The translations under genes were made by a program, and so were the position numbers. Under the pieces are notes generated by a model. It searched no databases. It saw only the letters and a list, made by a program, of their open reading frames with translations, and had not been told where the DNA came from. From Gammaproteobacteria bacterium (GTDB taxonomy: Bacteria > Pseudomonadota > Gammaproteobacteria > Steroidobacterales > JABDKV01), in the NCBI GenBank assembly GCA_024638445.1, contig JAHEKH010000089.1:1-10711 (forward strand): a stretch of DNA of 10,711 bases. The letters run 5' to 3'. Positions 1-10,711 of this stretch are shown in pieces. Every line of letters starts with the position of its first letter. The stretch's first letter is position 1.

Positions 1-1527
1 GATTGCTGCCACTCCGGCACCATGACCCGCGACGTGTTTGGCGACGCGGTGCGCGCCGCGCCCCCGGACAAACGGTCCGTGACAGCGATGGATCTTCCGG
101 AAACCCCCGCCGATACGCGCGATATCGATTCCGAAAAACTCAGCGAGGCCGGCTGGCTGGAAATCAGCGATTCCTACGTGGTGGTCTCCGGCTGCCGCGA
201 CAACGAGCTGTCGCATGAATTTCCCAAGCAGGATCCGGACAACCGAAACGGCGCGCTGACTCACTTCTTTACCGAAGCCCTGACGCGCGCAACACCCGGT
301 ACCACCTATCGCGACGCCTTCGAATATGCCCGCGGCAGGATCAATGCGAAATGGTCCGACCAGAACCCCCAGATCGACGGCAAGCTGGATCGCGAAATTT
401 TCGGCGTGAAAGACATCGAGCCGATTCGCTATGTCGCAGTGAAATCGGTCGACGGCGACAAAGTCGTGCTCAACGGCGGCAAGGCGCATGGCCTGTATCC
501 CAACTCACAGTGGACCGTCTATCCGCCCGGCACCAAGAGCACCGACGGCGTCGACAGCCTGGCCGTGCTGGAAATCGAAAAAGTCGGGGCCCTGACCTCG
601 AGCGCCGTGGTGCGCGAAACGCATGGCGAGGTCGTGCCGATGTCGCGCTGCGTGGAGACCGCCACGGCGGCCGAAAAATTCCAGCTGGGCATCGACCTCT
701 CCGCACTGCCTGAAGCCCAGCGCACAGCGCTGGCCGGCGGGATCGAGGAATCGAAACTACTGACCAGCGATGCCGTGGACAACGCGCTCCGGGTCTACGT
801 GCTCGAACCCCGCAGCTCGGCCGGTCCCGATGACCCTGTTCCCCAGGTTGAAAAAGTCGATACCCCGACCTTCGCCGTCGTTGACAACGGCGGGCAGCTG
901 ACCATGCCGCTGCACCCGGTGGCCGAGGACGGCATCGCCAAAACGCTGGTCAGCAACTTCGAAACAATCGCCCGCTACCGCAATGCGCTGGCGCTCGACA
1001 ACGCGGACAGCAAGCTCGATGTTGAGTTCAACCTGTACCGCGAGGTCGATGGCAAGTGGGAGCTGGCCAACGGCGGCAACAGCGTTTTCACCGAGGGTGA
1101 GCGGCTGTCTATCGAGGTCATCAACAACGAGAGCAAGCCGATCCATTTCTGCATTCTCGATTTCGAGCTGACCCGGGCAATTTCAGGGTTTTATCCACAG
1201 AGCCTCACCAGCGAGATGCTGGCGGCCGGCAAGAAGCTGGAGCTCGGCCGGGAGGAAAACGTTACTGCCTACATGAATCCGAAAGAGGAATACCCCGAGG
1301 ACCGGGGCGTAGAAACACTCAAGATCTTCGTTACTACCGACGAGTCCGATTTCCGCTGGCTCCAGCAGGGTGCCACCCGCGATGTCGGCCTCAGCGCACT
1401 GCAGAAAGAGTTCATGGCCGCCTATGGCGGTCCGGCGACCCGCGCGGTGAAGATCGAGAAGAAAAAAGCCTCTGATGACTGGAAGTCAATCAACCGTTCG
1501 TTCCATATCAAGAGACGTTTAGTCTGA
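1..1527 (+). CDS. Caspase-like peptidase (C14 / metacaspase-type catalytic domain), 5'-truncated by the window edge, with a ~490-aa C-terminal extension of unknown function
   Basis: Frame 1 is open from nt 1 (D-C-C-H-S-G-T-M...), so the ORF listed as 22..1527 continues upstream. DCCHSG at nt 1-18 matches the metacaspase/paracaspase catalytic-Cys signature D[AS]CHSG. The downstream motif VSGCRDNELSHE (about nt 187-219) resembles the metacaspase SGC(Q/K)DDQTS(A/Q)D motif. Stop codon TGA at 1525-1527. The remainder has no recognisable motif. Confidence 0.65.
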   Translation, partial: DCCHSGTMTRDVFGDAVRAAPPDKRSVTAMDLPETPADTRDIDSEKLSEAGWLEISDSYVVVSGCRDNELSHEFPKQDPDNRNGALTHFFTEALTRATPGTTYRDAFEYARGRINAKWSDQNPQIDGKLDREIFGVKDIEPIRYVAVKSVDGDKVVLNGGKAHGLYPNSQWTVYPPGTKSTDGVDSLAVLEIEKVGALTSSAVVRETHGEVVPMSRCVETATAAEKFQLGIDLSALPEAQRTALAGGIEESKLLTSDAVDNALRVYVLEPRSSAGPDDPVPQVEKVDTPTFAVVDNGGQLTMPLHPVAEDGIAKTLVSNFETIARYRNALALDNADSKLDVEFNLYREVDGKWELANGGNSVFTEGERLSIEVINNESKPIHFCILDFELTRAISGFYPQSLTSEMLAAGKKLELGREENVTAYMNPKEEYPEDRGVETLKIFVTTDESDFRWLQQGATRDVGLSALQKEFMAAYGGPATRAVKIEKKKASDDWKSINRSFHIKRRLV

Positions 1528-1537
1528 AAGGCCCGTC

Positions 1538-3763
1538 ATGAAGTACCAGGACTTCCGTATTCGTATCGAGTCGAAGACCGATACCGGATTTAACGTGAGT
1601 GTCGAATCCCCGGCTGGCAACGCCGATGAACATATCGTCCTGCCGTTCGATATCGATGAGGCAATGAAACAGTTTCACCAGATGGGGCTGGTTGTGCGTG
1701 GCGCCGCCAGCCGCAAGGTAGAAATCGACGGCCCGGAGCCAATGAAACCCTCCGAGTTCGGCGACCAGCTGTTTCGCGCGTTGTTTACCGGCCGTGTCGG
1801 CAAGATGTACAACGCCATGTGCCGTGATCTGCAGGATCCTGAGATGGGGCTGCGCATAAACCTTCACCTGAACCTGAACGACGCCGGTGTCGGCGCGTTG
1901 GCCGGCGTTCCATGGGAGTTCGTCTACGACGCCGACACAATGGATTATCTGAACCTGAGCCGCCAGACGCCCGTCATTCGTTATCTTGACGTGCAGCGGC
2001 CAAACACGGTCCAGCCGCTAACCGGCAAGCTCAAGGTGCTGGTCGTGATGTCCAGCCCGAAAGGTGAGCACGCCCTGGACCTCGACAAGGAACGCAAGCT
2101 CATCGAGTCGATCTGGTCGGGCGACGATAACGTCGAGCTGACCATCAAGGAAAACCCCACACCGAACAAGCTGCGTTCCTGGCTGACCAACGACAATTAC
2201 CACGTGCTGCACTACATGGGGCACGGCGCCCATGACGACAAGACCGGGGTAGGCGCCCTGGTCCTGGAGGACGATGACGGCAATGCCAACCTGCTCGACG
2301 CTGAAACGCTGGGCACATTCCTGCGTAACGCGCCGACCATCCGCCTGGCGTTCCTCAACGCGTGTGACCTGGCCAAGACCGGTGAAGACACGCCGTTTTC
2401 CGGCGTTGCCAACCGGCTGGTGATGGCCGGTCTGCCGGCGGTCGTAGCGATGCAGTTCCCGATTTCAGACGATGCCGCCATCGCTTTCGCGCGCACCTTT
2501 TATACGCGGCTGGAGAAAGGCCAGCCGGTCGACGAGGCGGTAGCCCATGGCCGGACCGCTATCCTGGCCGACAAGCCGGGCTCCATGGAATGGGGCACGC
2601 CGGTGCTGTACATGCGCACGCCGGACGGCCGTCTCTTCGAGCGCCCGGGCGTTGAACCACCGGCAGCGGACCCGGCCGCGGCGGCGGAAACCGCTCCGGC
2701 CCCGCCAGCGCCTGACGGCTCGGTTTCGGTGCCGAAAAAAGGCATCGGCGCGGCGGCCGGCATCCTGGTGCTGCTGGCAGCCATTGCGGCCGGCGCGTTC
2801 TTCATGCTCGGCGGCAAGAAGGTGCCGCTGGATTTCGAGAGCGAGGAAATCCAGGCCTACATCGATGAACCGGTCGAAGTGAAGTTCATCGCGACCAACA
2901 ACCCGGAAGGCACGGCCCACCTGGACCAGTACAACGTGTCGGTGGCCGCACCCAACGCTACCGGCCTCGAAGTTTCCGACACCGACGAGATCAACGGTTA
3001 CTGGCGCACGATGATTACGCCGCGGGAGACCGGTGATTACGAGATCATTGCCACCCCGGTAGACGTCAACAAGCCTGATGCCGAGCCCCGCAAGAAATCA
3101 GCAAAACTGGTGGTCAGCATCAATCCGGAAGTACAGGCGGCTTACGAGACGGCTATGGCCAGCGTCAGTACCCCGGCTGTGGCCACCGAAGACCTGATAG
3201 AGACATTGACGGGTCTCGAAGCCCGCGGTCTGAGCGCTGAAATGCGGTCGGAAATCGAGAAAACCCGGGCGGCGCTCGAAGAAGTGGTCGCCACGAAGAC
3301 ACTTGCGCGCAGCGGGTTTGCCAGCGACTCGAGCACCCTGGCCGAAAAAATTGCGGCGTACGTAGACTGGAAGACCCAGGTGCAGGCGACCCGCGATTTC
3401 GAACCCACCGCCAGCGCCTACCCGGAGGTCATGCAGGAACTCGAGACCCTGGCCGGGCGCATGGATGTCGCCGGGATGACGCTGTGCACGAAGGCACCGC
3501 CGTGCAGCGATGTATCGCGCGTGGCTTCGGGTGGCCGGGTCTACACGGTAATCGAGTACACACCGGCCGAAAAGGGCTCGAAGGTTGCGGTGCTGTATCA
3601 CGCGATGCCGGACAACGAGGTCAGGAAGACCCGCCAGATGACCCTGGCCGGCAATACCACTCACGCCGACTGGTCGACCGCGCCCGCGCGTGGCAGCTAC
3701 GAGGTGAGACTGTACAACGATGCCGGCGACCTGCTGGTCTCGAAGCCCCTCGAAATCTACTGA
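1538..3763 (+). CDS. CHAT-domain (caspase HetF-associated) protease-like protein with a single predicted transmembrane helix and a ~320-aa C-terminal domain
   Basis: ATG at 1538 lies 10 nt after the upstream stop and is preceded by AAAGG. The CHAT His motif LHYMGHG has its His codon at 2222-2224. The Cys motif LAFLNACDLAK has its Cys codon at 2363-2365. A Pro/Ala-rich linker (PPAADPAAAAETAPAPPAP) is followed by KKGIGAAAGILVLLAAIAAGAFFMLGGKK, a hydrophobic helix flanked by Lys on both sides at about nt 2741-2815. The C-terminal ~320 aa has alternating beta-like and helical stretches with no known motif. Confidence 0.7.
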   Translation: MKYQDFRIRIESKTDTGFNVSVESPAGNADEHIVLPFDIDEAMKQFHQMGLVVRGAASRKVEIDGPEPMKPSEFGDQLFRALFTGRVGKMYNAMCRDLQDPEMGLRINLHLNLNDAGVGALAGVPWEFVYDADTMDYLNLSRQTPVIRYLDVQRPNTVQPLTGKLKVLVVMSSPKGEHALDLDKERKLIESIWSGDDNVELTIKENPTPNKLRSWLTNDNYHVLHYMGHGAHDDKTGVGALVLEDDDGNANLLDAETLGTFLRNAPTIRLAFLNACDLAKTGEDTPFSGVANRLVMAGLPAVVAMQFPISDDAAIAFARTFYTRLEKGQPVDEAVAHGRTAILADKPGSMEWGTPVLYMRTPDGRLFERPGVEPPAADPAAAAETAPAPPAPDGSVSVPKKGIGAAAGILVLLAAIAAGAFFMLGGKKVPLDFESEEIQAYIDEPVEVKFIATNNPEGTAHLDQYNVSVAAPNATGLEVSDTDEINGYWRTMITPRETGDYEIIATPVDVNKPDAEPRKKSAKLVVSINPEVQAAYETAMASVSTPAVATEDLIETLTGLEARGLSAEMRSEIEKTRAALEEVVATKTLARSGFASDSSTLAEKIAAYVDWKTQVQATRDFEPTASAYPEVMQELETLAGRMDVAGMTLCTKAPPCSDVSRVASGGRVYTVIEYTPAEKGSKVAVLYHAMPDNEVRKTRQMTLAGNTTHADWSTAPARGSYEVRLYNDAGDLLVSKPLEIY

Positions 3764-3772
3764 AAAAACGGG

Positions 3773-3794
3773 GCCCGGCGATCGGTCGCCGGGC
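3773..3794. terminator. GC-rich hairpin (gcccggcga-tcgg-tcgccgggc) directly after the CHAT gene stop
   Basis: 9-bp perfect stem with a 4-nt loop. An A6 tract lies upstream and there is no T tract downstream on the + strand. A second hairpin ccgggc-gcaaa-gcccgg follows at about 3808-3824. The geometry would be a classic terminator only for the minus strand. Confidence 0.3.
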
Positions 3795-3913
3795 TCCGGC
3801 AAATCAACCGGGCGCAAAGCCCGGGCGGACCCGCGCCGCGTGCCGGGTGCCGGGTAGTAAACTAGCCAGTGCGTTTCCATTCGACGCAATAACCGGACGA
3901 CAGGACGACAGCC

Positions 3914-4387
3914 ATGCCCCGATCGATCGTTTATTCGACGCCCACTGTTGCAATGCCCGGCGACACCCGCGGCGTGCCCAGCGGCGACTACAAGGCGCCC
4001 CCGCAGGCGCCTCCGCCGGACGACTACGCCGACAAGCTCGTCAAGCTGATCCCGGTCGAAGTCATCGGCGTTTATGTCTCGATGCAGGCCATTCTCGAAG
4101 GCGCAAAGCTGGTGCATCCGCCGGTGCCCTGGCTGGTCTACGGTTTCGGAATCTTCGCCACCTGGTTTTTCCTGCGGTTCTCGCTGAAAGTCAGCGACCG
4201 CTGGCACCTGCTCCTGGCCATGCTGGCCTTCGCGATCTGGGCGTTCAGCCTGGGCGGACCGTTCGAGCAGTTCCAGTGGTACGTCGACGCCGGCAGCACC
4301 TATGCGGGCCTGCTCGTGGCCGGCTACACGTTTATAGCGCCCTTGTTGTTGCCGGAAATCTCCTTCGAGGATGAAAAGAAGCCCTGA
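3914..4387 (+). CDS. Small integral membrane protein (3 predicted TM helices), hypothetical
   Basis: 157-aa ORF with AGGA 10 nt upstream. Three hydrophobic segments: WLVYGFGIFATWFFLRF, WHLLLAMLAFAIWAFSLGG and YAGLLVAGYTFIAPLLL. Its 3' end overlaps the next ORF by 17 nt, which suggests translational coupling. Confidence 0.5.
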   Translation: MPRSIVYSTPTVAMPGDTRGVPSGDYKAPPQAPPPDDYADKLVKLIPVEVIGVYVSMQAILEGAKLVHPPVPWLVYGFGIFATWFFLRFSLKVSDRWHLLLAMLAFAIWAFSLGGPFEQFQWYVDAGSTYAGLLVAGYTFIAPLLLPEISFEDEKKP

Positions 4388-4868
4388 CGCCATGGACCCT
4401 CGCCTGATGCTTGCCCTGGTCGTTCTGGCCCTGCCGGTGTCCGGTGTTTGTGGAGACAACGAGGAGCTCCTGACCGAACCGGTCCAGGTCGAGCCGGTGG
4501 TGGCGCCACCGCGCCCGGTCGTCTTTGCGCGGCGAATCACTGAACACGAGAAGACCTGCCAGCATGAGGCGCTTCCTTACCTGGGAATGACGCTGTCGAT
4601 CAGCCCGCAGGGTCATGTGGTCGGCGTGACCCACCGCGTGGTGGGAGACTTCGGCGCAAAGCGCATCGAAGCCATCATTGCCGACGTCCTGACGTATCGA
4701 TTCAAACCCTTCCTGGTCGACGGCCGGCTGTTGGCGCTGAGCCTGCCGCACCACGTCGTCATTGCCGACAACGAGGTCGTTCACTGTTACGAGGCGCCGC
4801 TGTTCCGCGAGCGCCGGATCGATCACCTGGATCTGGGGGAGTTTCCCGCCGGGACCGACGGGCAATAG
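4371..4868 (+). CDS. Secreted/periplasmic protein with a TonB-C-terminal-like domain (weak motif match); the start may instead be ATG 4392
   Basis: N-terminal signal-like segment (R/K then LMLALVVLALPVSGVCG). The C-terminal stretch GHVVGVTHRVVGDFGAKRIEAIIADVLTYRFKPFLVDGR resembles the TonB_C pattern G.V.V...s.G...LD.AA..Av..w.F.P. Overlaps the upstream gene by 17 nt if it starts at 4371. Confidence 0.45.
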   Translation: MKRSPDAMDPRLMLALVVLALPVSGVCGDNEELLTEPVQVEPVVAPPRPVVFARRITEHEKTCQHEALPYLGMTLSISPQGHVVGVTHRVVGDFGAKRIEAIIADVLTYRFKPFLVDGRLLALSLPHHVVIADNEVVHCYEAPLFRERRIDHLDLGEFPAGTDGQ

Positions 4869-4878
4869 GGAAAAAAGA

Positions 4879-4901
4879 ACCGGCGGCATTGCGCCGCCGG
4901 T
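4879..4901. terminator. Bidirectional Rho-independent terminator between convergent genes
   Basis: Stem accggcggc / gccgccggt (9 bp) with loop attgc. On the minus strand it is followed immediately by TTCTTTTTTCCC, a classic terminator for the SPFH gene. On the + strand an A tract precedes it and a T5 run follows about 17 nt later. Confidence 0.6.
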
Positions 4902-4947
4902 CAATCGTGCTGCGGTTGTTTTTCTTTGAGATCGTTGCCGGGCGACA

Positions 4948-6099
4948 TCAGGCGTCACCGTTGACGTTGATCTTGACGGTGTCCTGCAGCACGCCGTCCA
5001 GACCGCCGAAGACGGTCAGCTTGTCCACCTTCTCTGTCACCTTCTCGAGCGTCTCCAGCTCCTTCAGGCGCAGCAGTGCGGGGTGCTCACTCATCAGGCG
5101 GGCGGTGTTCAGCAGCGCACGGGTCGCTGCCGTCTCCTCACGGCGCTTGATGACGTTCGCCTGCGCGGCCTTCTCGGCCTCGACCACCTGGTTCAGAATT
5201 TCCTTCATGTCACCAGGCAGGATGACGTCCTTGACGCCGACGTTAGTCACCTCGATACCGTGTTCGCCCACCGCGGGCGCAACCGCCTCGTAGATCACGC
5301 GATCCAGCTCACCCTTGTTCGCCAGCAGCGTGTCCAGGGTGCGGGTACCGATGGCAGTACGCAGGGCGAACTGCAGCTCGCGGTACAGCTGGCCGGTGAC
5401 GTCCACCAGGTCCTTGTGGGCCTTCACCGGGTCGGCGATCTTGTAGGCAGCGGTCAGGTTCACGCGCAGCGTGACCTTGTCCTTCGTCAGGATTTCCTGG
5501 CCGCCCACGTCCATCGCCTGCAGGCGCAGGTCGACATGCGCGATCTTGATGTTGCGGTTGAACTTCCAGTACGCGTGCGTACCCGGCTGCAGTACGGTCT
5601 TGAACTCACCGTCCACGGTCAGCAGGCCGACGTGCTGGTCGGCCACCTCGGTGGCGACGATAAAGTTCGCAACCTGCACCAGGTCACGCGGGCGCGCACG
5701 GCCCAGGACGGCCGCCTTGCCACGGGGAATCTCGAACTCCTTTTCGATGTTCACCGTCTCGACGGCAATCTCCACCGGGCCCTTCCAGTACAGCTGGCGG
5801 GTGCCCGGGGCCAGGACCGTGTGCATCTTGCCGTTCTTGTAGACGAAGGCCACCTCGTAGTCGCCCAGGTCCACAATCTGGAAGTGCTGCTTGCACAGCT
5901 CGTGCTCGTCATCGATCAGGAAGTCGACGATACAGTGCTCGAACTCGGGCACCGTCAGGTCGTTGACCTCGACCGCGACACGCTTGAACGGTGCAATGAC
6001 CCAGCGGACGCCAGGGCGCAGGATCTGCGTGAACATGCCGTTCACGAAGACCAGGCCACGCTCGTGCTGGGCAATTACCTTGCGTGTAATACCAAACAT
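4948..6099 (-). CDS. SPFH / band-7 (stomatin-prohibitin-flotillin-HflK/C) family protein with an extra ~150-aa N-terminal region
   Basis: The C-terminal 230 aa carries the typical band-7 pattern (QEILTKDKVTLRVNLTAAYKI...GIEVTNVGVKDVILPGDMKEILNQVVEAEKAAQANVIKRREETA...) followed by a coiled-coil tail. I place the start at ATG 6099-6097 (MFGITRKV) because GAGGAGAGA lies 5-13 nt upstream. The longer ORF to 6162 has no RBS. Confidence 0.75.
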   Translation of the reverse strand: MFGITRKVIAQHERGLVFVNGMFTQILRPGVRWVIAPFKRVAVEVNDLTVPEFEHCIVDFLIDDEHELCKQHFQIVDLGDYEVAFVYKNGKMHTVLAPGTRQLYWKGPVEIAVETVNIEKEFEIPRGKAAVLGRARPRDLVQVANFIVATEVADQHVGLLTVDGEFKTVLQPGTHAYWKFNRNIKIAHVDLRLQAMDVGGQEILTKDKVTLRVNLTAAYKIADPVKAHKDLVDVTGQLYRELQFALRTAIGTRTLDTLLANKGELDRVIYEAVAPAVGEHGIEVTNVGVKDVILPGDMKEILNQVVEAEKAAQANVIKRREETAATRALLNTARLMSEHPALLRLKELETLEKVTEKVDKLTVFGGLDGVLQDTVKINVNGDA

Positions 6100-6313
6100 G
6101 GTGTCTCTCCTCTTGTTTTGGTTGGATGAAATGCGGCTGATAGCTGCGACCGGCCGCCGCAAAAAACCGGTCGGTCAATGCCCGTGGATCACCTCCTTTG
6201 CTTGCAGAAAATTTGGGCGCTGCAACCCAGGAACCCGTGTCGCGGCTTCGCCGCAGGTTCGCCTTACGTCAGTGCCCCGTGTGGAGCGGCTTCAGCCGCG
6301 CTTCTTTGGGTCT

Positions 6314-6369
6314 GGTTCCGGGATTGCGCGAAAGAGCTGCCGGCAGATCGCTCGCGCAATCCCGGAACC
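6314..6369. repeat. Perfect 17-bp inverted repeat (ggttccgggattgcgcg / cgcgcaatcccggaacc) enclosing an internal palindrome ctgccggcag; a 56-nt composite hairpin
   Basis: Read directly from the sequence. Arms at 6314-6330 and 6353-6369, with the 22-nt spacer itself palindromic. The mirror-image peptides in the + and - ORF tracks (FRDCAKELPADRSRNPGTRP and FRDCASDLPAALSRNPGTRP) are a by-product of this symmetry. Confidence 0.7.
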
Positions 6370-6672
6370 AGGCCAGCCGGAGATTGCGGAAGGGGTTAGC
6401 GGGGTCGGCCCCACACCCGTGCCGCGGGCCTGCCGTGCGATCCGGGAAGCCTGGTAACAGTGACGATGCGCTGCGCCGCACTCCTCCCTGAGTGATCGCA
6501 CGGGCCTTGTGCCCGGGTTGGCGCATCGTGACCGCTACCCGGCGACCCGGCCGGGCGGCCGGCGCAGGCGCACGCGGGTGCTGCGACACTGGCCGAAGGC
6601 CGGGCGTCGCTCGGGGCGTTCCCCTTTGGTTTCCAAATAACGGTTAACAGCCGTTGGCTTTTCGCCAGTAGA

Positions 6673-6745
6673 GTGGAAAAGGAGGATTCGAACCTCCGAC
6701 CCACGACGTTCAGGTCGTTGCTCTACCCATCTGAGCTATATTCCC
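6673..6745 (-). tRNA. Degenerate tRNA-like gene or pseudo-tRNA (anticodon region GAA, Phe-like) at the distal end of the array
   Basis: On the minus strand: GGGAATA TA GCTC AGATGGGTA GAGC A ACGAC CTGAAC GTCGT GGGTC GGAGG TTCGAAT CCTCC TTTTCCA C. The D-arm and T-arm are good. The anticodon loop is only 6 nt. There are two acceptor mismatches (G1:A72, T6:T67) and no encoded CCA. Confidence 0.4.
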
Positions 6746-6897
6746 GATTGGCGCTCTTCGCCGGACGCTCGCTCGGTATACGCCGTGCAACACACGCGTT
6801 GGCGCACCGGACCGGGTTCTCAGAACCGGAACCGCTGAACGATTGCCGTAGCAGAAAGAACTCTGTGTGGCCCGCCGCAGGAATCGGCACGCCGAAT

Positions 6898-6978
6898 TGG
6901 TAGCCGCCCCCGGATTCGAACCGGGAATCACCCGGGTCTGAGCCGGGCAGGTATACCCGAGGTTCCCTTCAGGCGGCC
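6898..6978 (-). tRNA. Aberrant tRNA-like gene, 81 nt, anticodon loop CUCAGAC (CAG, Leu-reading) but no long variable arm and a non-standard D-region
   Basis: Acceptor GGCCGCC / GGCGGCT (7 bp, one G:U), discriminator A, CCA encoded. T-arm CCCGG TTCGAAT CCGGG. Anticodon arm CCCGG CTCAGAC CCGGG. Between the acceptor and the anticodon stem lie 24 nt (TGAAGGGAACCTCGGGTATACCTG) that do not fold as a canonical D-arm. Confidence 0.45.
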
Positions 6979-6990
6979 AAAGAAATTAAC

Positions 6991-7066
6991 TGGATCACCG
7001 CCGAGGACTCGAACCCCGACCCCGGGGTTCAGGGCCCCGTGTCCTGCCCGGTTAGACGAGCGGTGA
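6991..7066 (-). tRNA. tRNA-Gln (anticodon CUG), 76 nt, CCA encoded, C33 instead of U33
   Basis: TCACCGC TC GTCT AACCGGGCA GGAC A CGGGG CCCTGAA CCCCG GGGT CGGGG TTCGAGT CCTCG GCGGTGA T CCA. All four stems pair. The anticodon loop CCCTGAA gives CUG at positions 34-36 but lacks the universal U33. Confidence 0.65.
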
Positions 7067-7071
7067 CTATC

Positions 7072-7146
7072 TGGAGCGGCCCGGGGGACTTGAACCCCCA
7101 CCCTCAACCTTCGCACGGTTGTGCTCTGCCCTTGAGCTTGAGCCGC
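7072..7146 (-). tRNA. tRNA-Arg (anticodon GCG), 75 nt, CCA encoded
   Basis: GCGGCTC AA GCTC AAGGGCA GAGC A CAACC GTGCGAA GGTTG AGGGT GGGGG TTCAAGT CCCCC GGGCCGC T CCA. Clean cloverleaf. Position 32 is G, which is unusual. Anticodon GCG rather than the ACG usual in bacteria. Confidence 0.65.
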
Positions 7147-7151
7147 ATGAG

Positions 7152-7229
7152 TGGTTGCCCGCGGTGGAATCGAACCACTGTGCGTTCCGCCTTGTAAGGG
7201 CGGTGTCCGGCCACCGGACCACGCGGGCT
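7152..7229 (-). tRNA. tRNA-Val (anticodon UAC)-like, 78 nt, CCA encoded, irregular
   Basis: AGCCCGC GTG GTCC GGTGGCC GGAC A CCGCC CTTACAA GGCGG AACGCAC AGTGG TTCGATT CCACC GCGGGCA A CCA. Irregularities: A1:A72 mismatch, 3 nt between the acceptor and D-stem, a 7-nt variable loop and an A49:C65 mismatch. Confidence 0.55.
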
Positions 7230-7277
7230 TTTCGGCTGTGCTCCTCACCGGTAGCGCATGCTAGAGTTTCTGCGCCG

Positions 7278-8765
7278 ATGAACAACGAACACGACCTCGA
7301 GCTGATCCTCAATTCCCAGGTGCCCCTGATCGTGGTGGAAACCCACGACGAACCACCGATGCTCGAGCTGCTCAAGCGCGTTTCGCTGAGCCGCAACGCC
7401 GCCGACTACCAGCCGGTTTTCCGCTGGACGATTACCGACGGGCTGCAACGCATGGAGCTGGCGCTGCAGGACGACACCGAGGAACTCGACCCCGAGCAGG
7501 TGTTGCGGCATATCCGCAGGACCCAGCAGACCGGCATCTACGTGCTGCTGGATTTCCACCCGTACCTGAAAGACCCGGTCAATATCCGGTTGCTGAAAGA
7601 CATCTGCATCGATTTTCCGCAGGCGAAGCGTCATGTGGTTTTGCTGAGTCACCAGCTGGAGCTGCCGCCTGAACTGGAGGCCTTTGGCGCGCGTTTCCAT
7701 ATCGCCCTGCCCAACGAGCGGCAGCGCAACGAGATCATTCGCGAAGTCGCCTCCGAATGGCGCGAGGCCAAAGGCAAGACCGTGTCGGCCGATCCCCGCG
7801 CGCTGGAGCTGCTGGTCACGAACCTCGCCGGCCTGACCGAATCCGATACCCGCCGGCTGGCGCGTAACGCCATTTTCAATGACGGCGCAATTACCCGCAG
7901 TGATCTCGAAGGCGTGATGGCGGCCAAGTACGAGCTACTCAACCGCGGCGGCGTGCTCGGCTTTGAATACGAAACCCACCGGTTCTCCGACGTGGCCGGG
8001 CTGAGCCGGCTGAAGGCCTGGCTGGAGCAACGCAAGCCGGCTTTTCTCGGCGAGGCGCAGGCCGCCGGGCTGGACGTGCCTCGCGGGGTGCTGCTGATCG
8101 GCGTGCAGGGCTGCGGCAAAAGCCTGACCGCGAAAGCAACTGCCGGTGTTTACGGCGTGCCGCTGCTGCGGCTGGACTTCGGCACGCTGTACAACAAGTA
8201 TCACGGCGAGAGCGAGCGCAACCTGCGCGAGTCCCTGAAAACCGCTGAAGTAATGGCGCCGTGCGTGCTGTGGATCGACGAGATCGAAAAGGGGTTGTCG
8301 ACCGGGCACGATTCCACCGGCACGACCCGGCGGGTGCTGGGCACTTTCCTGACCTGGCTGGCGGAAAAAAACTCGCCGGTGTTTGTCGTCGCGACCGCCA
8401 ACGACATCTCGGCGCTGCCACCCGAACTGGTGCGCAAGGGCCGTTTCGACGAGCTGTTCTTCGTCGATCTTCCCGATTCGGATGTCCGTATGGCCATTTT
8501 CGAGGTGCACCTGCGTTTTCGAGGGCACGACCCGGCGGCGTTCGACCTCGCAAGGCTCGAGGCTGCGGCGGACGGTTTTTCCGGCGCCGAAATCGAGCAG
8601 GGCATCGTATCCGCGCTCTATGCCGCGCATGCCAAGCGCGAACCTTTATCGACCGCACACATCCTGCGCGAACTGGAACGGACCCAGCCGTTATCGGTCG
8701 TTATGGCCGAGACCGTGCACGCACTGCGAAGCTGGGCCGACGGCCGTACGGTGCCGGGACACTGA
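7278..8765 (+). CDS. Classical-clade AAA+ ATPase (FtsH/Cdc48/Vps4-type module) with a ~270-aa N-terminal domain of unknown function
   Basis: Walker [14 protein letters not shown], Walker [11 protein letters not shown] and the second region of homology [29 protein letters not shown], followed by a helical lid. Start placed at ATG 7278, the first ATG clear of the tRNA genes. No clear SD (only 48 nt after tRNA-Val). The longer ORF from 7119 would overlap two tRNA genes. Confidence 0.75.
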
Positions 8766-8797
8766 GTCGCATCGCGGCCGGGCAGAACCTCCCTGCC

Positions 8798-8872
8798 TGG
8801 TGCGGACAGCGGGAGCTGAACCCGCGGCTCTGCACCGGCAACGCATTGCTCTCCCCTTAAGCGGACATCCGC
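8798..8872 (-). tRNA. tRNA-Gly (anticodon GCC)-like, 75 nt, CCA encoded, non-canonical
   Basis: GCGGATG TCC GCTT AAGGGGA GAGC A ATGCG TTGCCGG TGCAG AGCC GCGGG TTCAGCT CCCGC TGTCCGC A CCA. The acceptor and T-stem pair. The T-loop TTCAGCT is atypical. The anticodon stem is weak (A27:G43), and there is an extra nt at positions 8-9. Confidence 0.5.
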
Positions 8873-8881
8873 AGGTCTTGT

Positions 8882-8956
8882 TGGTGGACCGTGAAGGACT
8901 TCAACCCTCATCTCGCCGGGTAAGAACCGGGTGCTCTGGCATTGAGCTAACGATCC
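8882..8956 (-). tRNA. tRNA-Lys (anticodon CUU), 75 nt, CCA encoded
   Basis: GGATCGT TA GCTC AATGCCA GAGC A CCCGG TTCTTAC CCGGC GAGAT GAGGG TTGAAGT CCTTC ACGGTCC A CCA. The D-loop lacks G18G19. The T-loop has G56 instead of C56. C27:C43 mismatch. Confidence 0.6.
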
Positions 8957-8961
8957 GTATC

Positions 8962-9036
8962 TGGGGTGGCCGGCCGGGTTTGCACCGGCATCGTCCGGGT
9001 TCACGGCCCGGGGCTTTGCCTTTAAGCGACAGCCAC
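8962..9036 (-). tRNA. tRNA-His (anticodon GUG)-like, 75 nt, discriminator C, CCA encoded
   Basis: GTGGCTG TC GCTT AAAGGCA AAGC C CCGGG CCGTGAA CCCGG ACGAT GCCGG TGCAAAC CCGGC CGGCCAC C CCA. C33 replaces U33. T-loop TGCAAAC. There is no encoded G-1: the upstream base is T. Confidence 0.55.
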
Positions 9037-9041
9037 AGAGC

Positions 9042-9116
9042 TGGTCGGGGAAAAAGGAATCGAACCTTCTGTCACGCGGGCCCAAACCGCGAGCTTTGCC
9101 ACTAAGCTATTCCCCG
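9042..9116 (-). tRNA. tRNA-Pro (anticodon UGG), 75 nt, CCA encoded, near-canonical
   Basis: CGGGGAA TA GCTT AGTGGCA AAGC T CGCGG TTTGGGC CCGCG TGACA GAAGG TTCGATT CCTTT TTCCCCG A CCA. C1:G72 and G37 are as expected for Pro. Confidence 0.8.
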
Positions 9117-9123
9117 GGGAAAC

Positions 9124-9197
9124 TGGTTGCGCGAGCCGGAATCGAACCAGCGTCTCGCCCTTATCAGGGGCGTGCTCTTTCATTGAGCTATCGCGCT
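9124..9197 (-). tRNA. tRNA-Ile (anticodon GAU), 74 nt, CCA encoded
   Basis: AGCGCGA TA GCTC AATGAAA GAGC A CGCCC CTGATAA GGGCG AGAC GCTGG TTCGATT CCGGC TCGCGCA A CCA. The anticodon arm is nearly identical to enterobacterial tRNA-Ile(GAU). A1:A72 mismatch. The D-loop lacks GG. Confidence 0.65.
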
Positions 9198-9204
9198 CGA
9201 GATC

Positions 9205-9280
9205 TGGAGAACCGGACGGGACCCGAACCTGCAATCGCCAGGTTGAGAGCCTGGCCGCTTATCGGTTTGCGTACCGGTTC
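9205..9280 (-). tRNA. tRNA-Glu (anticodon CUC)-like, 76 nt, CCA encoded
   Basis: GAACCGG TA CGCA AACCGATA AGCG G CCAGG CTCTCAA CCTGG CGATT GCAGG TTCGGGT CCCGT CCGGTTC T CCA. 3-bp D-stem with no GG in the D-loop. The T-loop has G58. A51:C63 mismatch. Confidence 0.55.
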
Positions 9281-9286
9281 AGTGTT

Positions 9287-9361
9287 TGGCGCCCCGTGCG
9301 AGATTCGAACTCGCGTCTGGCGGATCGACAGTCCGCTGCTTTACGCTCAAGCTAACGAGGC
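9287..9361 (-). tRNA. tRNA-Asp (anticodon GUC), 75 nt, discriminator G, CCA encoded
   Basis: GCCTCGT TA GCTT GAGCGTA AAGC A GCGGA CTGTCGA TCCGC CAGAC GCGAG TTCGAAT CTCGC ACGGGGC G CCA. All stems pair, but the D-loop lacks GG. Confidence 0.7.
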
Positions 9362-9399
9362 GGGTTGATATCAGGCCGTTCTCCGCTCTGCTCGTGTCT

Positions 9400-9417
9400 C
9401 CGGTAAAATGATACCGG
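9400..9417. promoter_or_regulatory. Palindrome ccggta-aaatga-taccgg in the divergent region between the tRNA array (minus) and the transporter gene (plus)
   Basis: Perfect 6-bp arms read directly from the sequence. It sits 46 nt upstream of the EamA start and 39 nt upstream of the first tRNA 5' end. No convincing -35/-10 hexamers could be assigned. Confidence 0.3.
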
Positions 9418-9462
9418 TTTCAATCGCCCGGCCCGGTTCCCCGAACCAGCGGAGTGTTTCCA

Positions 9463-10335
9463 ATGTTCGCCAGAATCGATGCGCGTGTCCTGGTCGTGCT
9501 CGGCGCCGTGTTGTTTTCCACCGGTGGTGCCGCTATCAAGGGCACGACACTCACCGGTTGGCAGGTCGCCGCGTTCCGGTCCGGTGTAGCCTGCATCGCG
9601 CTCCTGGTCATGATTCCGTCGGTGCGCCGAGAGCTGTCCTGGCGGGTGCTGCCGGTGTCGGTCGTGTATGCGACGACGCTGGCGTTGTATGTGCTGGCCA
9701 ATAAGCTCACGACGGCCGCCAACACCATTTTTCTGCAGTCCACGGCGCCACTGTATCTGTTGTTTCTCGGGCCGTTGCTGCTGCGCGAGCATACGCAAAA
9801 ACGCGACTGGTGGTTCATCGTTGCCCTGGCAGGCGGACTGGCGCTGTTTTTTGTGTCGATCGACGCACCAACCGAAACCGCACCGGCACCGCTCGCGGGC
9901 AACCTGCTCGGCGGACTCGCGGGCTTTAGCTGGGCGCTGACACTGCTCGGGCTGCGCTGGCTGGCCATCAGTGCCGGACCCGGATCAGCCGCCGCGGCGG
10001 CCGCAACCGGGAATCTGCTGACCTTCCTCGTTTGTGCTTACTGGGCGTTTCCGGTCGTCGACAGCGCACCGCGCGACTGGCTGTTGATCGCTTACCTGGG
10101 TGTGTTCCAGATCGGGGTTGCGTACGTGCTGGTTACCGCCGCGATGCACCGGGTATCCGCCCTGGAGGCGTCGCTACTGATCCTGATCGAGCCGGTGCTG
10201 AATCCCGTCTGGGCGTGGTTGTTTCTCGATGAGACCCCCGGCCGGCTCGCGCTGCTCGCGGGATCTCTCATCCTGGTGAGTATTACCGTGAGGACGCTGC
10301 AGCAACGCCGGTTGCCGAACTCTGGCGAACCCTGA
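9463..10335 (+). CDS. EamA / DMT-superfamily (drug-metabolite transporter) membrane protein, ~10 TM helices
   Basis: 290 aa and almost entirely hydrophobic, with two EamA-like halves (LANKLTTAANTIFLQSTAPLYLLFLGPLLLRE and LVTAAMHRVSALEASLLILIEPVLNPVWAWLFLDE). GGAG lies 8 nt upstream of ATG 9463. The GTG at 9454 from the ORF track lacks spacing to that SD. Confidence 0.7.
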   Translation: MFARIDARVLVVLGAVLFSTGGAAIKGTTLTGWQVAAFRSGVACIALLVMIPSVRRELSWRVLPVSVVYATTLALYVLANKLTTAANTIFLQSTAPLYLLFLGPLLLREHTQKRDWWFIVALAGGLALFFVSIDAPTETAPAPLAGNLLGGLAGFSWALTLLGLRWLAISAGPGSAAAAAATGNLLTFLVCAYWAFPVVDSAPRDWLLIAYLGVFQIGVAYVLVTAAMHRVSALEASLLILIEPVLNPVWAWLFLDETPGRLALLAGSLILVSITVRTLQQRRLPNSGEP

Positions 10336-10443
10336 CCCGTTTCGGCGCAGGGCATCGCGCGCCGGCCGGACGCAGCGATTCAGTCGCAACTACGCCGTTG
10401 AATTGCCGGCCTTGTGGCGCAGCCCGGGCCCGGCTCCCGGCGG

Positions 10444-10711
10444 CTACTGATTCCTGAGAATCTGCTCGAACTCCAGGTTGTCGTTAACGATGTAAACATC
10501 GTGGTAACGAACGGAGCCGAGCGCGTAAGTGAAACGGACCCGGTACATGCCGGTCTCGGGACCGTGATAGTAGAATTTGCTGCCGTCCGCTGCGACGAAA
10601 TCCGGTTCGTCAGGCCTGCGCCACGTGTGGTTCACGGAACACGACCGGTACGCATCGGGACTACCCGGATACGTGGTCTTGCAGCCGAAGAATCCATCCA
10701 GCACCTCGCCA
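10444..10711 (-). CDS. Hypothetical protein, C-terminal fragment (gene continues past the window end)
   Basis: Minus-strand ORF with stop TAG at 10446-10444, open to the window edge. Cys/Tyr/His-rich composition (FFGCKTTYPGSPDAYRSCSVNHTW...YYHGPETGMYRVRF) with no motif I recognise. Confidence 0.35.
   Translation of the reverse strand, partial: GEVLDGFFGCKTTYPGSPDAYRSCSVNHTWRRPDEPDFVAADGSKFYYHGPETGMYRVRFTYALGSVRYHDVYIVNDNLEFEQILRNQ

Follow-up and report, generated by a model that had tools for sequence, protein, structure and literature searches.

Two different caspase-fold proteases, a metacaspase and a CHAT protease, are encoded side by side in a stretch of 10,711 nucleotides (nt) from a gammaproteobacterium of the order Steroidobacterales (assembly GCA_024638445.1, contig JAHEKH010000089.1, positions 1 to 10,711), called the window below. 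From position 1 to 4387 the window holds the 3' part of the metacaspase gene, the CHAT protease gene and a third open reading frame (ORF3) for a small membrane protein, in that order and all on the (+) strand. These genes make up the downstream two-thirds of a multi-protease module that is conserved and associated with the cell envelope. The reading tentatively favoured here, partly by analogy, is a sensor-coupled two-tier cascade in which the CHAT protease would act on the metacaspase, and the metacaspase on ORF3 and other targets.

The activation of one caspase-fold protease by another was long deemed an animal invention, and in bacteria it has been demonstrated for one CRISPR-linked system. 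If the favoured reading is true, the module would be a second and much more widespread bacterial caspase-type cascade, and the first with an input from outside the cytoplasm, received by a receptor-like membrane protease. It would then offer a simple system for studying how envelope signals become regulated proteolysis or cell death. It also gives a testable role to two large unannotated families, the DUF4384-type metacaspases and the ORF3-like proteins with four transmembrane (TM) helices.

The three proteins

The first protein is a member of the C14 metacaspase family with a caspase/hemoglobinase fold. A reading of the letters and open reading frames alone (the sequence-only reading) had the window open on DCCHSG, the catalytic-Cys signature of a C14 peptidase. 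This is borne out: frame 1 is open from the motif (nt 1-18) to a TGA at 1525-1527, and the catalytic Cys is invariant. The one recorded contig with the CHAT protein is as long as the window (10,711 bp), and the metacaspase gene is cut by its end directly before DCCHSG, so that about 147 codons of its 5' part, that of the catalytic His included, lie outside. Because the His half of the domain is missing, the fragment scores only 17.9 bits (E 0.0026) on Pfam Peptidase_C14, below the cutoff of 21.4 bits.

The homologues fill this gap. There are 150 of them, 640-690 amino acids (aa) long. The closest full-length ones, P0121 and P0122 (654-656 aa, about 54-55% identical to the window protein), reach 95 bits on Peptidase_C14 and contain both FHFSGHG and FDCCHSG. 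By phmmer, the nearest solved relatives are Yca1, AtMC4 and TbMCA2 (1e-15 to 1e-10). An AlphaFold model of P0122, with a predicted local distance difference test (pLDDT) score of 83.8, matches the type II metacaspases AtMC4 and AtMC9, the bacterial orthocaspase GSU0716 and MALT1 (E 1e-13 to 1e-9).

In P0122 numbering, D145 and C147 are invariant in 30 metacaspase sequences, and His87 is at least 90% conserved in 29 full-length homologues; the His block of the window's own genome falls beyond the contig end. D31 (in GCVND) and D145 (in DCCHSG) are conserved in the family and, by analogy with TbMCA2, presumably mark the S1-pocket Asp positions. Since both are kept, the metacaspase is predicted to cut after Arg or Lys.

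A linker of about 50 residues directly follows the catalytic Cys, and in it R154, R162 and R169 are invariant. In the P0122 model it is poorly ordered, with pLDDT below 50 at residues 149-158 and low values up to about residue 200. The linker presumably stands at the position of the L2 or intersubunit linker of caspases, where these are cut for activation. Its Arg residues are candidate activation-cleavage sites.

The last 370 or so residues form beta-rich domains, among them a DUF4384 region. Both P0121 and P0122 exceed the DUF4384 threshold; P0122 residues 513-594 match PF14326 at 28.9 bits (cutoff 27), and a Pfam scan of the window metacaspase itself finds no DUF4384 at E<=0.01. The fold of this region can be called only beta-sandwich-like, because the catalytic domains dominated the whole-chain fold searches.

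AtMC4, AtMC9 and GSU0716 are the best matches of the family by sequence or fold. With the type II metacaspases and orthocaspases it shares the His-Cys dyad, the DxCHSG motif and a long flexible linker after the catalytic Cys. It differs from them in the beta-rich extension of about 370 aa and in its operon with CHAT and membrane proteins.

The second protein is a member of the CHAT family with a CHAT/separase-type fold. As had been noted, its gene starts 10 nt after the metacaspase stop, with the gap at 1528-1537 and an ATG at 1538. Pfam CHAT (PF12770) matches aa 119-347 at 4.5e-31 and 108.8 bits (cutoff 24), and Pfam finds in the 741 aa nothing else apart from a weak C25 match. Profile and fold searches, which had been proposed as a check on the sequence-only reading, thus assign one protein to the metacaspase (C14) clade and the other to the CHAT clade.

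The catalytic dyad of the CHAT protein is His229, followed by Gly230 (nt 2222-2227, as read before), and Cys276 in Asn-Ala-Cys. The latter motif occupies nt 2357-2365; the range previously assigned to it, 2360-2365, spans only Ala-Cys. Neither His229 nor Cys276 varies among 29 full-length homologues; the search found 952 homologues in total. In a Foldseek search with a model of the protein (pLDDT 82.2), the best Protein Data Bank match is SAVED-CHAT 8tl0 (E 6.6e-12), with separase at about 1e-7 and DdvA at about 2e-7.

The model divides into an N-terminal beta/alpha domain, the CHAT domain, a linker rich in Pro and Ala with a strongly hydrophobic helix, and a confidently modelled C-terminal region. 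Residues 373-425 are of low confidence and contain a helix at 410-423. The N-terminal domain carries a disordered loop with two invariant Arg residues, Arg54 and Arg59, which is a candidate cleavage site. Two Cys residues of the C-terminal domain, Cys650 (3485-3487) and Cys656 (3503-3505), are invariant as well. No signal peptide is found in the protein. From this absence, together with the single TM helix and the C-terminal Cys pair, the CHAT domain is predicted to be cytoplasmic and aa 430-741 periplasmic.

The CHAT protein is therefore itself a membrane protein, with a layout like that of HetF, which adds to what the sequence-only reading had described. Its two ends evolve at different rates: mean pairwise identity is 63% in the CHAT domain (aa 101-370) and 23% in the periplasmic domain. 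In the wider family of N-terminal CHAT proteins the C-terminal parts are PASTA, TPR/BamD-like, FGE-sulfatase, SH3 or Big_2 domains, mostly extracytoplasmic binding modules.

Among the downstream partners, the third protein, ORF3, accompanies the metacaspase most constantly and is a better conserved neighbour than CHAT; it adjoins the metacaspase with or without CHAT. Its start, M-x-R-x-I, is invariant, as are Arg3 (3920-3922) and Arg19-Gly20 (3968-3973) in the N-terminal tail. The tail is judged cytoplasmic because the loop between the second and third TM helices is positive, and because the N-terminal extensions of 100-200 aa in distant relatives have no signal peptide. No entry of NCBIfam, PADLOC or Pfam matches ORF3, in Pfam not even at E<=1 with 22 members of the family. 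The four-TM module itself is common, with 2100 representatives in a profile search (E<=1e-3, 50% identity), and has no Pfam entry.

Some relatives of ORF3 carry further domains in their N-terminal extensions, such as a GIY-YIG nuclease (P0340) or PG_binding_1 (P0350). These fusions give no coherent functional signal. Tandem copies occur in P0324 and P0382, and the N-terminus M-x-R-x-I/V is common to P0303 and P0399.

ORF3 is followed by ORF4, which has been called a secreted partner. The earlier expectation of membrane and secreted partners downstream holds for ORF3, which is conserved, and fails for ORF4, which has no counterpart in 88 related loci. ORF4 has coding-like GC fractions at the three codon positions (0.73/0.39/0.78) and no Pfam or PADLOC match; it is probably a real gene outside the conserved module.

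Linkage and variants across genomes

A scan of one genome per species gave 259 metacaspase relatives confirmed by tblastn, and the best 80 of the 259 loci were analysed. They come from at least six phyla and include Gammaproteobacteria, Acidobacteriota, Gemmatimonadota, Chloroflexota, Rhodothermales, Calditrichia, cyanobacteria and one archaeon of the Methanoperedenaceae. CHAT and caspase neighbours were counted by iterated profile searches, because single-sequence phmmer missed most of the divergent CHAT and caspase-STAND neighbours.

A CHAT gene lies directly downstream of the metacaspase in 33 of the 80 loci and elsewhere within 6 kilobases (kb) in 16 more, 49 in total. The adjacency of the two is far above chance, and the sequence-only reading, which had proposed to look for it in other genomes, is confirmed in this respect. 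In 10 loci the flank is too short to judge whether a second protease is present. Among the other 70, a second caspase-fold protease (CHAT or C14) is found in 62; it is missing from 8, one of which has a clostripain gene instead.

The order caspase-CHAT(-ORF3) recurs in 13 gammaproteobacterial species-level genomes and on further metagenome contigs. Likewise, the contigs of three homologous CHAT proteins show a metacaspase, the CHAT gene and usually a gene for 150-157 aa in the same order. The gap between metacaspase stop and CHAT start is 4-50 nt in related loci; judged from the sequence, translational coupling across the 10 nt of the window is plausible. Between CHAT and ORF3 the related loci have about 4-46 nt, as against 150 nt in the window. 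A scan of window positions 1-7300 found no sigma-70 promoter.

One account of the gene pair would be that the two proteases are independent, sharing an operon and acting in parallel on different or common substrates, for example proteins destined for the membrane or periplasm, with no cascade. Many genomes have the metacaspase with ORF3 and without CHAT, and there are close relatives of the CHAT domain, for example P0078, with no caspase nearby, as this account would predict. It is at odds with the second caspase-fold protease in 62 of 70 loci, with the tight spacing and conserved gene order, and with a locus (L089) in which the same component set is found shuffled. It is the least probable of the accounts considered here.

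In Gammaproteobacteria the module has a further component. A protein of about 660 aa, with three N-terminal TM helices, a TolB_N-like region and TPR repeats (TM-TPR), is encoded in 33 of the 80 loci, usually divergently and just upstream of the metacaspase. The three helices and a positive N-terminus indicate that the TPR part should be periplasmic. The sequence-only reading recognised no TPR context, and so missed this protein, which in most gammaproteobacterial relatives lies just upstream and outside the window. The region upstream of position 1 was read from homologous loci; going by their gene order, the TM-TPR gene of this genome was presumably lost beyond the contig end.

What stays constant in the module is the metacaspase, joined in Gammaproteobacteria by the TM-TPR partner. 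The second protease differs between loci, and it always comes with a sensor-type module: a TM helix with an Ig-like domain, PASTA, TPR, nSTAND1-WD40 or BACON-FGE-sulfatase. Four variants can be distinguished. In variant A, that of the window, the metacaspase is followed by a HetF-layout CHAT protein and ORF3. In variant B, ORF3 stands directly behind the metacaspase, and a caspase-nSTAND1-WD40 protein of 1000-1550 aa is added. Variant C combines an 815-aa divergent CHAT-like membrane protein, a trypsin-like protease with a signal peptide and a second TM-TPR protein. Variant D, found in Acidobacteriota and others, has a TPR-CHAT upstream and another CHAT downstream.

Variant C is seen at 9998-14380 of one locus (L034) and in 15 similar loci. 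Its protein of about 815 aa has two TM helices near aa 530-582 and a degenerate N-terminal CHAT domain (Pfam E 0.001) that keeps HYGGH and FLNGC; it is followed by a Trypsin_2 protease of about 640 aa with a signal peptide. This would be a membrane-spanning three-protease version. The idea that the 815-aa proteins are fusions of CHAT and ORF3 was rejected, because no locus protein longer than 230 aa matches the ORF3 profile.

Other partners in related loci are Pkinase-TPR proteins and clostripain. In L089 the metacaspase, a caspase-nSTAND1-WD40 protein, a TM-TPR protein and a CHAT-PASTA protein occur on one contig in shuffled order.

In Gemmatimonadota and Rhodothermales the metacaspase gene is longer, encoding about 1140-1230 aa (L056 at 7974-11549, L069, L071, L074, L076, L079, L080, L084 and L087). 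In L056, the sole long form scanned with Pfam, the added C-terminal stretch is a DUF7379 domain (PF24096, 177 bits) and may be a fused effector. The archaeal locus (L061 at 7986-15306, Candidatus Methanoperedenaceae) has a 1264-aa member of the metacaspase family, a gene with a metallo-beta-lactamase fold and a caspase-BACON-FGE-sulfatase protein. This suggests a transfer of the module's logic between domains of life.

A phage origin was considered and rejected. The full-length metacaspase family protein is absent from 2.9 million viral contigs; the caspase domains found there are all distant (at most 37% identity, over residues 1 to about 290), and none has the DUF4384 extension.

A possible cascade and its alternatives

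From the domain identities, catalytic residues, folds, predicted topology and conserved gene linkage, we infer who cleaves whom, the trigger and the outcome as follows. The transmembrane CHAT protein would be the sensor-coupled initiator. A periplasmic or envelope cue would be sensed by its fast-evolving outer domain, possibly jointly with the periplasmic TPR partner, and would switch on the cytoplasmic CHAT domain. This would cut the metacaspase at one of the conserved Arg residues of the flexible linker behind the catalytic Cys. The activated metacaspase, predicted to be specific for Arg/Lys, would then cut downstream targets, one of them likely the Arg-containing cytoplasmic tail of ORF3. 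The outcome could be membrane damage, growth arrest or cell death.

The order from CHAT to metacaspase to ORF3 is favoured on several grounds. A constant metacaspase with a swappable, sensor-bearing second protease is what one would expect to see if a single executioner were served by exchangeable initiators, and there is a precedent in SAVED-CHAT. Invariant Arg residues also stand in low-confidence loops of all three proteins. Another possible point of contact is DUF4384, which is reportedly the C-terminal domain of some Csx30 proteins, the substrates of the CHAT protease Csx29; by this analogy, DUF4384 may dock onto CHAT enzymes.

The precedent comes from a type III-B CRISPR/CBASS-linked system of Haliangium ochraceum. 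There, SAVED-CHAT bound to cA3 cleaves and activates PCaspase, by which many proteins are degraded and infection is aborted (Steens et al., 10.1101/2023.06.23.546230). Like the window, this system encodes a CHAT protease and a C14 caspase-like protease in one gene cluster and has the sensor on the CHAT enzyme, an arrangement that in the window is proposed. Its structure 8tl0 is the best solved match of the window CHAT domain. The PADLOC profiles SAVED_CHAT and caspase are both matched, the former aligning only over positions 103-277 of 498.

There are also differences. The window has no SAVED domain, source of cyclic oligonucleotides, sigma factor, kinase or PCi inhibitor, and no cyclase, type III CRISPR or CBASS gene is found among the called genes and Pfam labels of the window and related loci. 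Instead of SAVED, the sensor part is a TM helix with a periplasmic Ig-like domain. The caspase of the window family carries a C-terminal extension of about 370 aa including the DUF4384 region, which sets it apart from PCaspase. Finally, the two genes of the window are directly adjacent, and four-TM and TM-TPR proteins are added.

Several observations weigh against the favoured cascade. CHAT is missing from about a third of the metacaspase loci, in which ORF3 stands right behind the metacaspase; the core can therefore do without CHAT. The Arg residues of the metacaspase linker are invariant also where CHAT is absent, and they might serve for autoprocessing, as in type II metacaspases. In Pfam and PADLOC, ORF3 resembles no known effector family, and the window-type operon contains no NTPase, nuclease or known pore-former. 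The flanks of window-type loci are mostly housekeeping and chromosomal, with no consistent defence-island signature. Lastly, HetF, the only studied protein with the CHAT-TM-periplasmic layout, regulates development and cell division and is not a factor of death or immunity (PMC9457339).

The cascade might also run in reverse. The metacaspase, activating itself in response to Ca2+ or stress, for example, would cut CHAT at Arg54/Arg59, and CHAT would be a membrane-tethered executioner or signal emitter. The two Arg residues are invariant in a disordered loop, as this order would suggest, and the metacaspase, with both S1 Asp positions kept, is predicted by analogy with TbMCA2 to cut after Arg/Lys. 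Its gene comes first in the operon, and its fold and long linker resemble those of self-processing type II metacaspases. It is the CHAT protein or variable second protease that bears the sensor-type module, however, and not the metacaspase; moreover, CHAT is upstream in the only characterised pair of CHAT and caspase, and ORF3 tracks the metacaspase and not CHAT. The reversed order is distinctly unlikely.

A more specific form of the CHAT-to-metacaspase cascade is a trans-envelope pathway of initiator and executioner caspases that is independent of gasdermins. In it, the CHAT receptor would respond to a periplasmic danger signal, for instance phage attachment or ejection, a toxin or cell-wall damage; the metacaspase would be cut in its linker, and the ORF3 tail would be clipped to yield a membrane-permeabilising effector. 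Elsewhere, cytoplasmic STAND-WD40 or lectin-type sensors would replace the receptor protease and use the same executioner. Taken as one joint claim this is unlikely. Bacterial gasdermin systems follow a similar logic, in which a membrane-acting protein activated by cleavage is encoded next to a caspase-like or CHAT protease. In Pfam and PADLOC, neither ORF3, an integral four-TM protein of 157 aa, nor ORF4 shows similarity to gasdermins.

The remaining alternative is regulatory proteolysis of the HetF kind. The proteases would then be housekeeping or developmental enzymes that remove inhibitor proteins and tune division, envelope biogenesis or stress adaptation, and not a suicide or immune device. 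HetF of Anabaena sp. PCC 7120 has the layout predicted for the CHAT protein of the window, with a cytoplasmic N-terminal CHAT domain, single TM helix and periplasmic C-terminal domain. HetF-type CHAT cuts after Arg, and HetF removes PatU3 by cutting after Arg117 (PMC9457339). Apart from the layout, this account fits the chromosomal setting with housekeeping neighbours, the lack of the full-length family in viral contigs, and the TolB_N-like/TPR periplasmic membrane partner, a type common in envelope-linked regulators.

The HetF model NF045509 is the sole NCBIfam match of the CHAT protein. Only the CHAT region aligns, however, at 79.6 bits against an equivalog cutoff of 1200, which shows that the protein is not a HetF orthologue. 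In contrast to HetF, its C-terminal domain is Ig-like/helical and not TPR (in relatives, the TPR repeats belong to another membrane protein), a PatU3 or divisome context is absent, and the papers on HetF consulted here describe no metacaspase adjacent to it. The metacaspase family also recurs in linkage with nSTAND1-WD40 caspases, FGE-sulfatase sensors and additional proteases, all of them characteristic of predicted conflict systems (Kaur et al. 2020). Its patchy spread over Gammaproteobacteria, Acidobacteriota, Gemmatimonadota, Chloroflexota, cyanobacteria and one archaeon, and the very fast divergence of the outer CHAT-protein domain, likewise speak against a HetF-like regulator. Such a role is on the unlikely side; if it did apply, developmental protease logic would extend from cyanobacteria to marine and soil Gammaproteobacteria.

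The sequence-only reading had taken the gene pair for a conflict or regulated-cell-death module and not for housekeeping proteolysis. This is supported by association only: the metacaspase family occurs with caspase-nSTAND1-WD40, TPR-CHAT, a secreted trypsin-like protease, clostripain, Pkinase-TPR and caspase-BACON-FGE-sulfatase. As the CHAT layout of HetF serves developmental regulation, a function in conflict or cell death is unproven. The module can be grouped, as a variant, with the multi-protease caspase-fold conflict or signalling systems.

A known system with some likeness to the module is the EACC1-caspase system, a membrane-associated conflict system of two genes (Kaur, Burroughs, Iyer, Aravind 2020). 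It resembles the window in combining a small membrane protein with a peptidase of the caspase superfamily; in some versions it has nSTAND1 NTPases, and proteolytic release of an effector has been predicted (Kaur et al. 2020). EACC1 differs from ORF3 in having one TM helix rather than four and in being encoded 5' of the caspase rather than 3'. The NCBIfam model "caspase, EACC1-associated type" gives 39 bits against a cutoff of 140.

CHAT is used as a switchable signalling enzyme in Craspase (Cas7-11, the TPR-CHAT protein Csx29 and its substrate Csx30) and in DdvA. The window has neither a CRISPR effector nor a sigma/anti-sigma pair. DdvA is a transmembrane anti-sigma factor with a CHAT-type domain, and its membrane-spanning structures 8rot and 8rw5 are among the CHAT fold matches. 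The CHAT-type domain of DdvA is reportedly periplasmic, whereas that of the window is predicted to be cytoplasmic.

No description of the module was found in the open-access literature searched; the surveys of metacaspases consulted do not mention CHAT neighbours. Other caspase-containing systems are treated by Kaur et al. 2020, where the term CHAT is absent.

Coordinates and other features of the window

Table 1. Features of the window, with positions counted from its first nucleotide.
Feature	Position	Strand	Basis or remark
Metacaspase, 3' part: 508 codons of a protein of ~655 aa with DUF4384-type C-terminal region	1-1527	+	translation; 150 homologues
DCCHSG catalytic-Cys motif; catalytic Cys is the second Cys (nt 7-9), Asp at nt 1-3	1-18	+	homologue alignment
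Flexible linker directly after the catalytic Cys; Arg codons 28-30, 52-54, 73-75	19-174	+	alignment and model
Region aligned to the DUF4384 (PF14326) beta-sandwich of homologues	1093-1341	+	alignment mapping
Intergenic spacer metacaspase-CHAT	1528-1537	+	10 nt; AAGG at 1528-1531 beside the stop codon (sequence)
HetF-layout transmembrane CHAT protease, 741 aa	1538-3763	+	ATG at 1538; Pfam CHAT
Disordered loop of N-terminal domain, aa 54-64; invariant Arg54, Arg59	1697-1729	+	alignment; pLDDT <50
CHAT catalytic domain, aa 119-347; His229 at nt 2222-2224, Cys276 at nt 2363-2365	1892-2578	+	Pfam, alignment
Single predicted TM helix, aa ~400-429, preceded by Pro/Ala-rich linker	2735-2824	+	hydropathy peak 2.51
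Predicted periplasmic domain: Ig-like sandwich, helical bundle, Ig-like sandwich	2825-3760	+	pLDDT >90; Ig-like fold matches
GC-rich hairpin in the 150-nt CHAT-ORF3 spacer	3769-3798	.	T run after hairpin on minus strand
ORF3: 157-aa membrane protein, 4 predicted TM helices, predicted cytoplasmic N-terminal tail	3914-4387	+	hydropathy, family alignments
ORF4: 165 aa, N-terminal hydrophobic segment, 17-nt overlap with ORF3	4371-4868	+	ORF call, GC
SPFH/Band 7 (HflK/C-like) protein gene, convergent with ORF4	4948-6162	-	listed start 6162; likely internal ATG near 6099
Two packed tRNA arrays, 11-12 genes in total	6673-7228 and 8801-9361	-	ARAGORN, Rfam
AAA+ ATPase, 495 aa, between the tRNA arrays	7278-8765	+	Pfam AAA
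EamA-family transporter gene beside tRNA array	9454-10335	+	unlinked to module
86-aa ORF near right contig end, no family match	10444-10704	-	unlinked to module

Beyond ORF4 the window holds genes that are not part of the module (Table 1). The SPFH, AAA ATPase and EamA genes were considered as partners and rejected, since none is conserved beside the module in related loci. The tRNA arrays were rejected as well, there being none beside the module in 21 related loci.

In the arrays, ARAGORN reports an unassignable tRNA (2-base anticodon), Gln-CTG, Arg-GCG, Val-TAC, Lys-CTT, Pro-TGG, Ile-GAT, Glu-CTC and Asp-GTC. Two further tRNAs, at 8801-8872 and 8965-9036, are found by Rfam, which lacks the Gln gene (6991-7066). 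The spacers of the second array are about 6-10 nt.

The AAA+ ATPase between the arrays matches PADLOC IetA at 6e-22, the NCBIfam model "anti-phage ATPase IteA" at 4e-19 (far below cutoff) and models of the FtsH/CDC48 type. No partner protease gene is visible. The listed start of its ORF, 7119, overlaps tRNA genes, and the likely start is the ATG at 7278.

ORF4 and the convergent SPFH gene have in common a bidirectional, terminator-like hairpin at 4878-4902. On the minus strand, positions 6185-6196 read GGAGGTGATCCA, a perfect complement of the 3' tail of 16S rRNA. After another 6 nt comes a TTG (6178), the start of an 89-aa ORF whose frame differs from that of the SPFH ORF. The two together could represent a leader ORF, a frameshift or chance.

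From the SPFH gene to the first tRNA extends a non-coding stretch of about 500 nt. It contains a near-perfect palindrome of 66 nt (6309-6374), whose two 33-nt arms are 88% complementary and have no spacer between them. A second inverted repeat, of 30 nt, is found at 6442-6471 and 6521-6550.

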